Origin: Clostridiales bacterium
GTDB lineage: Bacteria; Bacillota; Clostridia; Christensenellales; UBA1242
Assembly (NCBI GenBank): GCA_015069325.1
Contig: SVIV01000002.1
Coordinates: 97,886 to 161,885, forward strand
Direction of reading: 5' to 3'
DNA: 64,000 nt
The stretch's first letter is position 1. The number at the start of each line of letters is the position of its first letter. Position numbers and translations under genes: made by a program. The notes under the pieces were generated by a model. That model was given only the letters and a program-made list of their open reading frames with translations. It did no database searches and was not told where the DNA came from. This document shows, in pieces, positions 45,327 through 51,729 of this stretch.

Positions 45327-45566
45327 ATGAAACTTGTTAAAGCCTGTGCAAAAAGAATCAAAGAAATTATAGCTGAAAAAAATTTGAATCAATATAAACT
45401 TTATAAATGTAGCGGTGTCCCACAATCAACAATTAGCACTGTTTTAAAAGGAGAAATTAAAACTATCACAATTCACACAATTTACGACATTTGTGCAAGT
45501 TTAAATATCGAATTAAAAGACTTTTTTGATTGTGATTATTTAAGCCTTAAAAATATAGAAGATTAA
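45327..45566 (+). CDS. XRE-family HTH regulator
   Basis: NQYKL...GVPQSTIS, IC..LNIELKDFF; AGGAG SD. Confidence 0.85.
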   Translation: MKLVKACAKRIKEIIAEKNLNQYKLYKCSGVPQSTISTVLKGEIKTITIHTIYDICASLNIELKDFFDCDYLSLKNIED

Positions 45567-47219: not shown

Positions 47220-47255
47220 TTGCAAATAAAAAAGAAGGAGTTTTCTCCTTCTTAA

Positions 47256-48908
47256 TTATTTAGTTGTCTTTTTTGTAGCAGCCTTTTTTGTTGTTGACTT
47301 TGTTGAAGTTTTAGCCTTTGAAGTTGTTTTCTTAGGTTCTTCTTTCTTTTCAACTTTCTTAGAAGCTGGCTTTGATGCTACTTTCTTGTCTGCTGTTTTA
47401 GTTTCTGCTTTTTTAGTAGTCTTTTTCGCAGGTGCTTTTTCACTTGCTTCTTTCTTGTCTACAGGCTTTGCAGTAGATTTTGCAGGTGCTTTCTTCACTG
47501 ATTTTGCCTTTGCTTCCACTTTTTTATCGGCAGGCTTTGCTTCTTCCACCTTTTTCGTTGCTGACTTTTTAGCCACTTTTTTCGCAGGTGCTTTGTTTTC
47601 AACTTTTTCTTCTGCTTTAACTTCAATAGTTTTCATTTCATTTTCTTTTGCTTCTTCAGCAACACTTACAGTTTCAGCACTTTGCATTTCAAGTTCTAAT
47701 TTATGTTCGTCAGCCTTCTTTCTTAAAGACTTAAAGATTTTCTTATAACGAGCTTGCTCTTGTGCGATGTCTTCTTTTCCTGTAAGGTAATATCTTGCAA
47801 TTTCTTCGCCATCAACACCGTTTGCGTGCATATTTTCACAAGCACGGTTAAGTGCAAGAAGCTGTTCATTTTCTTTTAATGTGAAACGTTTACGAATAAC
47901 ATATTTTCTAATGCTCGTTGGCGCAGAGCCATCTTTCCAAAGAAGAGAAAGATATGTTTCTCTTTCGCTTTCTGGCGCTTGAACAAGCACTTTGTATTTG
48001 TCTTCTTTGCTTAAGTTGAAACCAATATTGTTTTTCACGCAAATAGGATCGGTAATTTTACGTTTTTCTTCTACACAGTCAAGTTCTAATTTAGTAATTT
48101 GAACCCTCTTAATCATTTTAAATACAAATGAAATTGACATTAAAATAAGTGGGATTGCAATGATTATAAGAATCATTGTATTGCTTGAAAGCATCTCTAA
48201 AAGGCTGCTCATTGTTTGTGCAGCAGGCGAATCATTGTAAACCCCTACAACCATTCTTTCACTGACTTTCCAGTAGTCTTTAGCTGTGTTTGAAGCACCT
48301 TTTGTTTGAAACCAATACATTCCGTTTTCATCTTCATAAATTTCAATGATAGTATGGAAAACAAGTTGTGCTTTATTTTTCCCTGCAGCAGCAATTTCAC
48401 TTGAAGGCACACCGAAAAATTCGGTAAACGAAAGCCCATACACATGCTCAGTGTTTTCTTTTGTTTGAGTGATTTCAATAGTGTCAAGCCTATTAAATTC
48501 TTCATAATCAGCAGCATATTTGTAGAATGCAATATGATCGCCAACATTCAATGTTTTAGTGTCAACCTTTTGCACAACAATCGTATCACCAATCTCAAAC
48601 CCTGCTTTCACCATACTGCCCGAAACAACCTGCATAAAGCTGTAACCAGCAAATGTAGGTGGAAGATGATTCATTTTAAAAATGAAACTGCTTAGCCCAA
48701 ACACACAACAAACCACACACATTGCAATTAAAACAACGTCAATAAAGATTGACAAAACCTTACCAACAGGACCTGTGCCAAACATTAACCATTTTTCATT
48801 TATTTTTCGTTTCTTTGAATACTTTTTGTCAAGGGCAAGAGCGGTCTTTTTAATTTTTTCTTGAACGCTATTGTCTTCCTTAACCAAAACATTAACATTA
48901 GACTGCAT
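47256..48908 (-). CDS. SipW-like (S26B) signal peptidase with extra domain and Lys/Ala-rich tail
   Basis: TM, VVSGSM (catalytic Ser), GDTIVV, LNVGDHIAF, VFHTI (His), TKGASN..D, second TM; tail of PAKK/AKK repeats. Confidence 0.82.
   Translation of the reverse strand: MQSNVNVLVKEDNSVQEKIKKTALALDKKYSKKRKINEKWLMFGTGPVGKVLSIFIDVVLIAMCVVCCVFGLSSFIFKMNHLPPTFAGYSFMQVVSGSMVKAGFEIGDTIVVQKVDTKTLNVGDHIAFYKYAADYEEFNRLDTIEITQTKENTEHVYGLSFTEFFGVPSSEIAAAGKNKAQLVFHTIIEIYEDENGMYWFQTKGASNTAKDYWKVSERMVVGVYNDSPAAQTMSSLLEMLSSNTMILIIIAIPLILMSISFVFKMIKRVQITKLELDCVEEKRKITDPICVKNNIGFNLSKEDKYKVLVQAPESERETYLSLLWKDGSAPTSIRKYVIRKRFTLKENEQLLALNRACENMHANGVDGEEIARYYLTGKEDIAQEQARYKKIFKSLRKKADEHKLELEMQSAETVSVAEEAKENEMKTIEVKAEEKVENKAPAKKVAKKSATKKVEEAKPADKKVEAKAKSVKKAPAKSTAKPVDKKEASEKAPAKKTTKKAETKTADKKVASKPASKKVEKKEEPKKTTSKAKTSTKSTTKKAATKKTTK
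47259..47640 (-). repeat. Low-complexity histone-H1-like repeats
   Basis: KAPAKK, KKAPAKS, KPADKK, KPVDKK, KPASKK in the peptidase tail. Confidence 0.8.
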
Positions 48909-49036
48909 TTTTTACCTCATTAATGTTATTATAACAAGATAGAAAGATTTTACCAAACTAATTTGCTTCTTTTTACAAAAAAATTAAAAAAATATTAAAT
49001 AAATTATTCTTTTTCTTCTTTTCTTCATTTTTAAAC

Positions 49037-49083
49037 AAAAAAAATCCTTCGGGAGATAGGTCATCATATCTTCCCAAAGGATT
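49037..49083 (-). terminator. Strong terminator after the last paralogue of the four-gene cluster
   Basis: AATCCTTTGGGAAGATA...TATCTCCCGAAGGATT followed by a T-run. Confidence 0.8.
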
Positions 49084-49105
49084 AATTTAAAAAGATTTAA
49101 ACTAA

Positions 49106-49696
49106 TTAAGCTTTTTTAACAAGAGCCCAAGTTACAACAGCGCTTCCTTCAGCAGAAGAACTTGTATAGTGAGCTGATTTGTTTGTATCTTTAATTGTTA
49201 CTGTGCAAGTAACTTCTACAGCAGCAGCAGCAGCTTCTGATTCACTAATAAGACCATCAGAGTCTGCGTCAGTAGCTGGAGCAACTTCAACTGAAGTTTT
49301 TGACCATTCAATTGTTACGTTAGCAAAATCAGTTGTATCTGTTACTGTAGCAACATATGTAGTTTCACCGACATTTGTGAATGTATAAGTGAATACAACT
49401 TGTTTGTTTGTAGCGTCAAGACCAATTGTTTCATCAGCTTTTAATTCGCCTCTTACTGTAGAATCAGTAACGTCGAATTCAGCTGTTCCCATATCTACGT
49501 CTTTAGTAATATTGTATTTTGCAGATACTGAACCTGCGATTTCACCAGTAACATTGTATTGAACATCGAAAGATGATCCAACTGTTTGTTGAGTTGCAGC
49601 GTAAACGCCGATGAGTCCACCAACTACTGCAACAAGAGCAACTGCAAGACCAATCACAGCATATGAAAGTTTCTTGCTAGATTTTTTTTGTTCCAT
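49106..49696 (-). CDS. Putative fibre/pilin subunit, paralogue 4 (likely major)
   Basis: KK-hydrophobic-GLIGVYA/ATQQTVGSSFDVQY; FTYTFTN; VTIKDTNKSAHY; codon choices resemble tuf by eye. Confidence 0.65.
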   Translation of the reverse strand: MEQKKSSKKLSYAVIGLAVALVAVVGGLIGVYAATQQTVGSSFDVQYNVTGEIAGSVSAKYNITKDVDMGTAEFDVTDSTVRGELKADETIGLDATNKQVVFTYTFTNVGETTYVATVTDTTDFANVTIEWSKTSVEVAPATDADSDGLISESEAAAAAVEVTCTVTIKDTNKSAHYTSSSAEGSAVVTWALVKKA

Positions 49697-49841
49697 TTTT
49701 AATTTCTCCTTAATTTTTTTTGTTTTGTGTCATATCCCTAAACGATGCAAGATGACCATTGCTTCGGTCCTCTACCCTTCCAAACATTTTTGAAAAGAAT
49801 GCCTAAACTTTATTTAACGATGTTAATTTATCAACTTTCTA

Positions 49842-50411
49842 TTATGGATTTGTAGGTGTCGTAGATGTAAGTGTCCAAACAAGACCTGCTGTTGAATTGC
49901 TTGTATAATGAGCTGATTTGTTTGTATCAATAATTGTTACTTGAATTGTTACTTCAACAGCATCAACACCAGAGCCTTCAACCCCTGCACCAGGCGCAAC
50001 TTTAACAGATGTTTTTGATGGAGTAACTGTTACGTTTGAATATGAACAGTTGTCTGCAAGAACAGCTTCATATTCATTTTCACCAATATTTAAGAATGTA
50101 TAAGTGAAAGTAATTGATTTATTTGTTACTGAAAGGTCAATTTTGCCTGCAGTGATTTTATCATAAGATGTTGCACCTTGTTCTTCAGTAGCAGCAAATG
50201 TAATCGCACCCATTTGAGTTTCTTGTCCGTTTAATACTTGATATTTTGCTGAAACGGTAGCAGCAATATCGCTTCCAACCGTATATTGAACATCGAATGA
50301 TGAGCCAACTGATTGTTGAATAGCAGCCCAAGCACCGATAAGTCCGCCAACTACGAAGCATACAGCAACTGCAAGCGACATAACGGCGATTGATAATTTT
50401 TTATTTGACAT
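49842..50411 (-). CDS. Putative fibre/pilin subunit, paralogue 3
   Basis: GLIGAWA/AIQQSVGSSFDVQY; FTYTFLN; VTIIDTNKSAHY. Confidence 0.65.
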   Translation of the reverse strand: MSNKKLSIAVMSLAVAVCFVVGGLIGAWAAIQQSVGSSFDVQYTVGSDIAATVSAKYQVLNGQETQMGAITFAATEEQGATSYDKITAGKIDLSVTNKSITFTYTFLNIGENEYEAVLADNCSYSNVTVTPSKTSVKVAPGAGVEGSGVDAVEVTIQVTIIDTNKSAHYTSNSTAGLVWTLTSTTPTNP

Positions 50412-50453
50412 AATTTATCTCCTTAAATATTAAATCTTGATTGTGAAGTAGAT

Positions 50454-51071
50454 TTAAACTTCTAAGTACTCTAAGGTAAAGCTTAACCCATTATCAGCAG
50501 AACTTGCAACATAAGCATTTAAGGTCGTCTTATCAACCGCAAATCTTATGCGGATGTAATGAGTGGCCTCCGGCTGAAGTACTAAAGTCATTTGAGAAAA
50601 ATCTGATGATGAAGAAAGTGTTGTCCATTCGGTAGTGCTTCCAGTTGAGATTATGTAAGAACAATTTATGTTTGCCAAATCATCTGAGAAACTTGCCCAA
50701 CTCGATATTACTTGCACTCCTTGCGAAGTTGACGCATTTTCGAATGTATAAGTAAAATCGACATAGGTTTTATCTGCCGTAAGTGCTATGTTGTGCCCTT
50801 GGCCCAATTGCTCTATTTGCTGAACGGAATTGATATCATACTGAATATCCCCCATTTCAACAATGTTTTCTCCTTGGATTTGATAGTATGCTGAAACCTT
50901 TGCCGCAATGTTTTGCCCGACTTCATATTTAATATTGAAATCTGCATCCATTGACTGCATTGTTGCTGCATATACCCCTATTAATGCACCTGTGATTGCG
51001 ATAAGACTGAAAACCAAAAGAAAAACCGCTAGTGTGAATTTAGATCTTGCACTCTTTCTTTTTGCCATCAT
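50454..51071 (-). CDS. Putative fibre/pilin subunit, paralogue 2
   Basis: ALIGVYA/ATMQSMDADFNIKY; IAAKVSAYY; FTYTFEN; start moved to MMAKRK (AGGGG SD). Confidence 0.62.
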   Translation of the reverse strand: MMAKRKSARSKFTLAVFLLVFSLIAITGALIGVYAATMQSMDADFNIKYEVGQNIAAKVSAYYQIQGENIVEMGDIQYDINSVQQIEQLGQGHNIALTADKTYVDFTYTFENASTSQGVQVISSWASFSDDLANINCSYIISTGSTTEWTTLSSSSDFSQMTLVLQPEATHYIRIRFAVDKTTLNAYVASSADNGLSFTLEYLEV

Positions 51072-51076
51072 TACCC

Positions 51077-51643
51077 CTAATCTCCAATTTTGACAATAAC
51101 CCACTCAAGGCCATTCTCAGCATTACTTAAATAGGTGGCATCTCTATCAAGGTTTACGACTGCGATAGTCATTTCAACCGTCCAAGTTTCACCGGCACCA
51201 ACGATAAAACCATTTTGTGGCCTACCGTCTTCACCGTTTACTAAGCAGTAAATACTAATGTTTGATTTGATTGATTCATCTACAAGTGTAACTTTCATTT
51301 CCTTATTCTTCTCATTGTTTGTGAACGTATAGGTAAATTTTACACTACTATGTTCCTGAGTAAGAACAATAGGATCGATTGAAAGCATTTGGTATGCTGT
51401 TTGTTTGTCGTCTTTAGGGTCAAATACGATTTTGCCGAAGCTTACTTCATTACCTTCAAACGTATATTTCCCTTCAACAGTAGCAGCAACCTTCACTTGA
51501 TAGTGCACTTCAAAACTATCATCAGTTTTTAATGCAAAGTAGGCCCCCAAAGCACCCCCTACTAAAAAAAGAATGCAAATTATAAGGATTATTATAAGTT
51601 TTATTCTTTTCTTTTTAGACTCGCCTTGGTAATTTTCTGCCAT
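51077..51643 (-). CDS. Putative fibre/pilin subunit, paralogue 1
   Basis: GALGAYFA...SFEVHY; VAATVEGKY; FTYTFTN; ends NGLEW. Confidence 0.62.
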   Translation of the reverse strand: MAENYQGESKKKRIKLIIILIICILFLVGGALGAYFALKTDDSFEVHYQVKVAATVEGKYTFEGNEVSFGKIVFDPKDDKQTAYQMLSIDPIVLTQEHSSVKFTYTFTNNEKNKEMKVTLVDESIKSNISIYCLVNGEDGRPQNGFIVGAGETWTVEMTIAVVNLDRDATYLSNAENGLEWVIVKIGD

Positions 51644-51699: not shown

Positions 51700-51729
51700 A
51701 TTCTATCGCAAAGCATAAAGTCTTGTCAA
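51700..51729 (-). promoter_or_regulatory. SigA-like promoter of the paralogue cluster
   Basis: TTGACA-18 nt-TAGAAT. Confidence 0.6.

Follow-up and report, generated by a model that had tools for sequence, protein, structure and literature searches.

Which structure could be built by four small, similar proteins whose genes lie in a row beside the gene for an unusual signal peptidase? This question is raised by a locus in a 64,000 nucleotide stretch of DNA from a Clostridiales bacterium (GTDB lineage UBA1242; contig SVIV01000002.1, positions 97,886 to 161,885), which is called the window in the following. The window is part of a contig of a 986,605-bp genome that is 96% complete. Four tandem paralogues (termed A, B, C and D) lie on the minus strand in the region bounded by plsY/der and spoIVA and are followed by the gene for a peptidase of 550 amino acids. 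A previous, sequence-only reading of the window had taken these genes for a candidate new fibre or pilus system. Our analysis suggests that these genes together encode a protein fibre of the TasA/AbpA type on the cell surface, a reading to which we assign a probability of about 60%. Gene linkage, the conservation of a predicted cleavage site and a trimer model support in silico that the four proteins are subunits of a fibre analogous to TasA, as had been proposed. To call it a new system was too strong; it looks like a sequence-distinct variant of the signal-peptidase-linked donor-strand fibres, which include TasA, BsaA, AbpA, AbpX and Tafi.

A genus sample of 151 genomes was searched with profiles of the subunit family and of the peptidase, a class sample comprised 401 genomes from 216 genera, and a neighbourhood sample consisted of 40 peptidase loci drawn from other genomes. 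Column statistics were taken from an alignment of 120 members of the subunit family and from 75 homologues of the peptidase; residue numbers refer to subunit D or to the peptidase. Representatives of the subunit family were collected with an exhaustive profile search of 1.84 billion proteins. This search was required because the word-indexed homologue search returned very few relatives (three foreign relatives with one protein as query and seven proteins with an alignment).

Evidence for a common function comes from the linkage between the subunit family and the peptidase. Within the genus, 34 genomes encode both, eight only the family, three only the peptidase and 106 neither; altogether, 42 of the 151 genomes are family-positive and 37 are peptidase-positive. 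The odds ratio for co-occurrence is 150; the related genomes are not independent, so that the small Fisher p-value overstates the association. At 33 of the 40 peptidase loci, one to five family genes are located directly upstream on the same strand. The seven exceptions include four loci with less than 600 bp of contig upstream, one with an adjoining convergent family gene and two without any family gene. Co-occurrence of the homologues with a SipW-like gene had been set in advance as a test of the fibre proposal, and both the genome counts and the gene order are in line with it. The wide TasA superfamily is marked by subunit genes placed beside the gene for a dedicated Sec11/SipW-type signal peptidase I, and this arrangement is found here.

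The four small proteins (188–205 amino acids) are encoded next to each other on the minus strand and align over their full length, which agrees with the earlier description of four adjacent paralogues of about 190–205 amino acids with one layout. Subunit A is 26–30% identical to B, C and D, C and D share 52% of their residues, and 26 columns are invariant. These columns include the G..G..A end of the hydrophobic helix, F-x-x-x-Y, A-x-x-V-x-x-x-Y and FTYTF-x-N, and all shared motifs named in the sequence-only reading are present among them. Judged by these alignments, the likeness among the four proteins is far beyond chance. The family profile found 850 representative clusters at E ≤ 1e-3, of which 376 reach E ≤ 1e-10. 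Most representatives are 180–250 amino acids long, some reach up to 1,736 amino acids. The few labelled relatives are named "hypothetical protein [Clostridia bacterium]" or, in the case of the long ones, "BspA family leucine-rich repeat surface protein". In the class sample the family was matched only in the genus to which this genome belongs.

Pfam and NCBIfam scans of A to D and of the 120 relatives gave no covering model and only sub-threshold noise. The models for FliL, choice-of-anchor S and several DUF families were rejected as such noise, the FliL match being driven by the transmembrane helix. Searches of PDB sequences with the family profile and with the peptidase yielded nothing usable. 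Neither an LPXTG motif nor a C-terminal hydrophobic anchor was seen in the translations of A to D, as stated before, and no sortase candidate (PF04203) was found in the 96% complete genome. The locus lacks both marks of a sortase-assembled pilus, the sortase gene and LPXTG. A relation to type IV pilins was set aside on the basis of the aligned sequences: the hydrophobic helix has the conserved motif at its C-terminal end and not in front of it, and no prepilin site of the G/F-x-x-x-E type was seen in the alignment columns of the 120 members.

The conserved residues at the N-terminus suggest how the subunits might be processed. Type I signal peptidases cut at the helix end after an Ala at position −1, with a small or aliphatic residue at −3. 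Within the first 50 residues of the 120 members, conservation is highest at K9, V31 (95 members), A33 (111), A34 (110) and Q37 (90) and in an alternating segment that follows; the helix-end motif G-x-x-G-V-(Y/W/F/L)-A-A resembles the TasA-type end only loosely. A33/A34 at the helix end looks like a signal peptidase cleavage site, as predicted from this conservation. The alternating segment behind the site consists of V39, S41, F43, V45 and Y47, of which Y47 is present in 116 of the 120 members.

Structure predictions point to a role for this segment in polymerisation. The AlphaFold2 monomer model of D (predicted local distance difference test, pLDDT, 86.2) consists of a helix (residues 7–35), residues 36–54 without strand pairing and a beta-sandwich (55–194). 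Three predictions of a homotrimer of mature D (residues 34–196) scored 0.01, 0.50 and 0.66 (median 0.50), and the best of three controls scored 0.00. The homotrimer passed the mark of the tool; in the calibration of the tool, 20 of 30 solved homo-pairs but only one of 23 single chains attained this mark. The partner has a pLDDT of at least 64, and at least 9% of the contacts are shared between the runs. In the model, one copy has its N-terminal strand buried in the sandwich of its neighbour. The contacts in the best run are formed by residues 34–50, 52 and 54 with strands 57–61, 69–74, 98–104, 166–180 and 186–194 of the neighbour, and the near-invariant Y47 touches the near-invariant N126. The proposed strand exchange is reproduced by the models, since the segment left unpaired in the monomer is the one that is placed into the sandwich of the neighbour in the trimer. 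This supports donor-strand complementation by D at the level of modelling. Donor-strand polymerisation, another hallmark of the wide TasA superfamily, is found here as a prediction and not as a measurement. The geometry is that reported for TasA, in which residues 28–38 at the mature start complete the sheet of the next subunit (PMC9674648).

The peptidase matches the SipW model NF046067 (E 6e-14, 52 bits; cut-off 190) and TIGR02228 (E 2e-11, 44 bits; cut-off 51.85), in both cases below the cut-off. An insert of about 60 residues, located between the Gly-Asp box (box C) and His185, divides both matches into two pieces each. The boxes are Ser98-Met99, Gly-Asp124, His185 and Gly204..Asn207..Asp211; Ser98-Met99, Asp124 and Asp211 are invariant in the 75 homologues and His185 is present in at least 90% of them. 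We take the Ser and His residues and the Asp of box E to be catalytic, by analogy with SipW and Sec11. The AlphaFold2 model of residues 40–290 has a pLDDT of 91.7. The best Foldseek hit is human SEC11A (7p2p_A; probability 1.00, TM-score by target 0.54, with a weak E-value of 3.7e-3), followed by SEC11C (7p2q_A); LexA, UmuD, SpsB, SipA and LepB appear in lower rows. The protein is the only TIGR02228-type match in the genome. Because an ordinary LepB-type signal peptidase (86 bits) is also present elsewhere in the genome, the enzyme of the locus is, on these matches, a second, specialised signal peptidase. Its homologues carry the public label "hypothetical protein", and no precomputed Pfam domain was found among the 120 listed.

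About 260 additional C-terminal residues follow the second transmembrane helix of the peptidase. They form a domain with many nearly invariant columns in the 75 homologues, and the tail is rich in Lys, Ala and Glu and resembles histone H1. No Pfam match was found for this region. Short homologues of 199–291 amino acids in other genomes do not have it.

The four subunits had been described with one shared layout. This layout stands, but the four are not equivalent, since A lacks the cleavage motif. It has a Phe at position 33, where 111 of the 120 family members have Ala and three have Phe. The first gene of the cassette in another genome, G016, has the helix end GVFFVLN. Altogether, in 17 of the 33 cassettes one paralogue lacks the cleavage motif and the others keep it; in 16 of these 17 the deviating gene is the one adjoining the peptidase gene. 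Because of the missing motif, we propose that A may be an uncleaved membrane anchor, nucleator or terminator of the fibre. Such a role would be comparable to those of TapA, of the membrane anchors noted in Tafi loci and of the tethered intermediate proposed for BsaA (10.64898/2026.01.04.697558; PMC11580942).

Codon usage separates the subunits further. With the tuf gene of the same genome as reference, the codon adaptation index (CAI) of D is 0.705, which is above the 99th percentile (0.684) of the 697 open reading frames of at least 150 amino acids. The CAI of C is 0.605 (above the 95th percentile), whereas those of A and B are 0.41 and 0.33. D is preceded by an AAGGAG Shine-Dalgarno sequence and followed by a terminator of its own. 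The suggestion that the last copy is the major subunit is therefore retained: D is probably the major subunit, and B, to judge from its codons, a minor one.

Taken together, we propose the following mode of assembly. B, C and D, with D being the most abundant, would be exported via Sec with a long signal peptide, and the adjoining peptidase would cut after V/I-x-A (A33/A34 in D). This would free an N-terminal strand with the alternating hydrophobic residues V39, F43, V45 and Y47, which might enter the beta-sandwich of the next subunit, as in the trimer model. In A the transmembrane helix would be retained, and A would serve at the membrane as anchor, nucleator or terminator of the fibre.

The earlier reading was also too narrow in scope, since the module is not limited to the four genes of the locus. 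The family profile detects 18 strong open reading frames in the genome and one weak one. Of the 18 copies, four belong to the cassette, two more are short and twelve are long (442–818 amino acids); most of the 18 are fused to adhesin-type repeats. The long members carry the whole module (profile positions ~5–188) at the N-terminus. One of them, a protein of 545 amino acids, is encoded in the window; it matches the family profile with E 7.9e-23 and PF03382 (DUF285) with 148 bits (cut-off 25). A Pfam scan of eleven long members gave DUF285 matches above the cut-off in eight, one match of 23.6 against the cut-off of 25, and no Pfam match in two; the twelfth has DUF285 matches in a search of the whole genome. 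In that search, 10 of the 13 open reading frames with DUF285 are family members. The three that lack the module are C1:49780-52326, C5:124797-125453 and C7:226063-226389 (1014, 411 and 300 amino acids). The simplest interpretation is that the long members would be exported, cleaved and then fitted into the polymer formed by the cassette subunits. Twelve long proteins, ten of them with leucine-rich repeats (LRRs) of the DUF285/BspA type, would plug into the fibre and display their adhesin heads. In the literature searched (supplements aside), we found no description of the subunit family; SipW or TasA was not tied to BspA/DUF285, nor was the donor strand to BspA.

How the proteins relate to TasA was addressed with profiles and structures. 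PF12389 had no match in A to D (E ≤ 1), in the 120 members (E ≤ 1e-3) or in the whole genome (E ≤ 10), and the B. subtilis control was detected. The SipW-cognate signal model TIGR04088 was not among the matches of A to D or of the 120 members and gave no match in the genome at E ≤ 10; thus, a scan with SipW-dependent signal peptide models, suggested earlier as a check, finds nothing. A profile alignment (hhalign) with 17 clostridial PF12389 proteins gave 88% probability (E 3e-6) over 43 columns, which extend from the signal peptide to the first Phe only. In the ESM Atlas, 29 of 30 feature matches were unnamed clusters; in the remaining cluster (score 0.90), 22% of the members have PF12389. The absence of PF12389 matches and a probability of 3% in the comparison of the mature domains agree with the earlier statement that the subunits cannot be assigned to TasA by sequence. 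By sequence they cannot be placed in the TasA family, and the fold comparison points neither way; in the models, their way of working looks the same.

Several published systems can be compared with the cassette. In B. subtilis tapA-sipW-tasA (8AUR; PMC9674648) a Sec11/SipW-type peptidase is likewise encoded beside small secreted beta-sandwich subunits; the mature N-terminus is here a predicted donor strand, and an accessory paralogue might have the anchoring or nucleating role of TapA. Unlike there, the subunit genes come first and the peptidase gene follows, the mature domains have no profile similarity to TasA, the peptidase has 550 amino acids with the insert and a large conserved cytoplasmic C-terminal region, and there are 18 module-bearing genes, most of them with LRR heads. 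The C. perfringens sipW-bsaA-bsaB-bsaC system (PMC11580942) is a clostridial SipW-linked matrix polymer for which N-terminal strand exchange has been modelled. Its authors propose that the subunits are tethered to the membrane by the signal peptide until SipW cuts, which fits an uncleavable paralogue that anchors the polymer here. BsaA and BsaB are remote TasA homologues with a strand locked by intermolecular isopeptide bonds (PMC11580942); such a lock was considered for the present family and dismissed, the 120 members having no conserved Lys in the mature domain, so that none is expected. The von Willebrand A protein and the type IV pilus link of the Bsa system were not seen here.

The loci of the archaeal and bacterial TasA-superfamily fibres AbpA, AbpX and Tafi (10.64898/2026.01.04.697558) resemble the cassette in that fibre genes lie beside a TIGR02228-type signal peptidase I; their fibres assemble by donor strands, as is predicted for the cassette. 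Membrane anchors and tip or adhesin components are frequent additions to these loci. Here, in contrast, the adhesin-bearing members are scattered in the genome and the family occurs in one genus among the 216 sampled. Chaperone-usher pili of Gram-negative bacteria (FimA, FimG, CfaB) also complement an incomplete Ig-like fold with a donor strand, and FimG, CfaB and FimA are the top, non-significant Foldseek rows of the subunit model (E 0.018–0.13). As neither chaperone, usher nor outer membrane is involved here, this is an analogy and not a membership. The C-terminal parts of ten family members match DUF285 as in BspA-type LRR proteins (PF03382, LRR_5); the N-terminal export and assembly module lies outside the BspA definition and is unannotated in the libraries searched.

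Several observations weigh against a fibre of the TasA/AbpA type. The hydrophobic segment of the subunits (about 24 residues) is like a membrane anchor, and the AlphaFold2 helix 7–35 continues through the proposed cleavage site. The complex run that scored 0.01 and the low agreement of contacts between runs weaken the trimer model. With the signal peptides trimmed, the hhalign probability to the clostridial PF12389 proteins drops to 3%, and Foldseek of the subunit model finds nothing at E ≤ 1e-3. VIA-align gives a best Z of 6.4 and no distinctive relative of the fold. AbpA (7ueg_A) is among the top matches with a Z of 5.9 (root-mean-square deviation 3.9 over 119 residues) and the TasA fibre (8aur_A) reaches a Z of 5.1 (deviation 3.9 over 117 residues), but numerous unrelated sandwiches score equally well. 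D is set apart from the peptidase gene by the strong terminator and the promoter-like site of the latter. The linkage also has gaps in both directions, with three peptidase-positive genomes lacking the family and eight of the 42 family-positive genomes lacking the peptidase. Five family-only genomes (all 97–98% complete) were searched again with TIGR02228 and nothing exceeded the cut-off, so that dependence on the peptidase is not absolute. Their family members end the helix in AxA-like motifs that could be cleaved by an ordinary signal peptidase. Part of these observations would suit type II signal-anchored surface proteins, in which the helix stays uncut and the sandwich of about 160 residues is a stalk, bare or with an LRR head, the peptidase serving another purpose or trimming a subset. 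The length of the hydrophobic segment and its modelling as one 29-residue helix, the seemingly uncleavable A and the corresponding paralogues, which occur in 17 of 33 cassettes, and the genomes without the peptidase are all compatible with this; neither a sortase nor another obvious anchor was found in the genome, and a transmembrane anchor would simply retain the adhesins. A plain anchor, however, would not need A33 and A34 at the helix end, which are conserved to about 92% with V or I at −3, and it leaves the tight adjacency to a second, specialised signal peptidase unaccounted for. The trimer model uses the segment after the site as an inserted strand, and high expression of a head-less stalk such as D would be odd. 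We consider such an anchor rather unlikely.

The subunits might also be cleaved and form something other than a fibre, such as a sheet-like coat or matrix, for example a wall layer in which the LRR proteins are embedded, or be secreted as monomers. The same linkage and cleavage-site evidence would apply, the very high codon adaptation of D would suit an S-layer-like coat as well, and the complex predictions, one of which failed, give a trimer and not the geometry of a long polymer. The runs that passed, however, place the N-terminal strand inside the next copy, and this head-to-tail contact gives linear polymers in TasA (PMC9674648); we therefore regard a coat or free monomers as improbable. 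A spore appendage or coat component is very improbable. It is brought to mind by the position next to spoIVA in the window and in G016 and by TasA, which was first described as spore-associated (PMC9674648), whereas the adjacency to spoIVA is not conserved in G099, G085 and G047, the subunits have Sec-type signal peptides and the upstream promoter-like site is sigma-70-like. The fibre of the TasA/AbpA type is thus the reading we prefer. A more far-reaching version is tentative and, taken as a whole, seems doubtful to us: that the donor-strand fibre evolved independently of TasA and is the main surface display platform of this organism, with one polymerisation handle shared by 18 genes and about a dozen interchangeable BspA-type heads, and that the cleavability of the signal peptide sets the role of a subunit, cleavable ones extending the fibre and the uncleavable paralogue (A, with equivalents in 17 of 33 cassettes) anchoring or terminating it.

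The literature on TasA, BsaA, AbpA, AbpX and Tafi already describes donor-strand fibres that are linked to a signal peptidase and have accessory anchors and adhesins. New in this locus are a family that the libraries searched do not recognise, its confinement to one genus of Clostridia with tiny genomes among those sampled, the 18 genes with BspA-type heads, the unusual peptidase and the recurring uncleavable paralogue. If the fibre reading is correct, a function would be given to a family of at least 850 clusters that is left blank in these libraries and to a peptidase family labelled hypothetical. A sortase-less Clostridium with a very small genome would have a way to display BspA-type adhesins via a donor-strand polymer, with a simple anchoring rule, namely one paralogue with an uncuttable signal peptide. 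The fibre principle would extend to subunits without a link to TasA in sequence or fold searches, which bears on the question of single versus multiple origins. If cleavability sets the role, fibre assembly would be ruled by the competence of subunits for the signal peptidase.

The features of the locus are compiled in Table 1. The longest frame of B (216 amino acids) starts with GTG inside gene A and overlaps it; an ATG-ATG at 51071, directly past the stop codon of A, gives the B listed here, which aligns with its paralogues and suggests that A and B are translationally coupled. That the peptidase gene follows directly had been noted before: it is indeed adjacent downstream of D, but a gap of 197 bp lies between them, which holds the terminator of D and a separate promoter-like site. 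Promoter-like sites are consensus matches only, and 18 were found compared with 14.3 expected in shuffled sequences. The terminator after D escaped a simple hairpin scan due to its long loop.

Table 1. Features of the subunit and peptidase locus and a dispersed family member (positions in the window).
Feature	Position	Strand	Description
Promoter-like site upstream of gene A	51700..51729	-	TTGACA, 18 nt, TAGAAT; 11/12 consensus matches
Subunit A, 188 aa	51077..51643	-	deviant paralogue, longer charged N-terminus, helix end GAYFALK
Subunit B, 205 aa	50454..51071	-	MMAKRK start; canonical GVYA-AT site; extra insertion in sandwich
Subunit C, 189 aa	49842..50411	-	canonical GAWA-AI site
Subunit D, 196 aa	49106..49696	-	helix 7-35, predicted site VYA33/A34, predicted donor strand ~34-50, beta-sandwich 55-194
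Intrinsic-terminator-like hairpin and U-run after D	49036..49082	-	-23.9 kcal/mol, z -5.1, 0/200 shuffles as good
Promoter-like site of peptidase gene	48928..48956	-	TTGGTA, 17 nt, TG-TATAAT; consensus match only
Peptidase, 550 aa, whole gene	47256..48908	-	Sec11/SipW-like Ser/His enzyme
Peptidase catalytic part, residues 1-290	48039..48908	-	N-terminal transmembrane helix, extracellular catalytic domain, second transmembrane helix
Peptidase C-terminal part	47256..48038	-	conserved cytoplasmic domain (~290-400), then Lys/Ala/Glu-rich tail
Terminator-like hairpin after peptidase gene	47232..47253	-	simple hairpin scan
Dispersed long family member, 545 aa	57080..58717	-	N-terminal module (residues ~5-212) and DUF285/BspA-type LRRs

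The position of the cassette differs between genomes. It is hosted by a conserved array, comEC-holA-der-plsY-spoIVA, and is located in the plsY/spoIVA gap here and in G016 and in the holA/der gap in G099. In G085 and G047 it lies elsewhere, on contigs other than the one bearing spoIVA, and in G008 and G011, which do not have the cassette, plsY is directly beside spoIVA. The genes of the cassette move together. Reading of the stretches around the cassette sites in the comparison of G008, G011, G016 and G099 revealed no recombinase. Beyond spoIVA, G016 has three tandem small helix-turn-helix genes (1925–2686 of its locus), compared with a single gene of 79 amino acids in the window (45327–45566).

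Among the family-only genomes, G048, G075, G148, G060 and G053 encode divergent members with the helix ends AFA, AIA, VLA, TLA and AWA, some as tandem pairs and some with long C-terminal regions fused to them. Elsewhere in the Clostridia, many PF12389 matches are limited to profile positions 2 to ~78 and lie at the beginning of large open reading frames; in G442, for example, there are ten matches in reading frames of 263–966 amino acids. Going by these matches, TasA-type N-termini on large proteins seem to be common beyond the genus.

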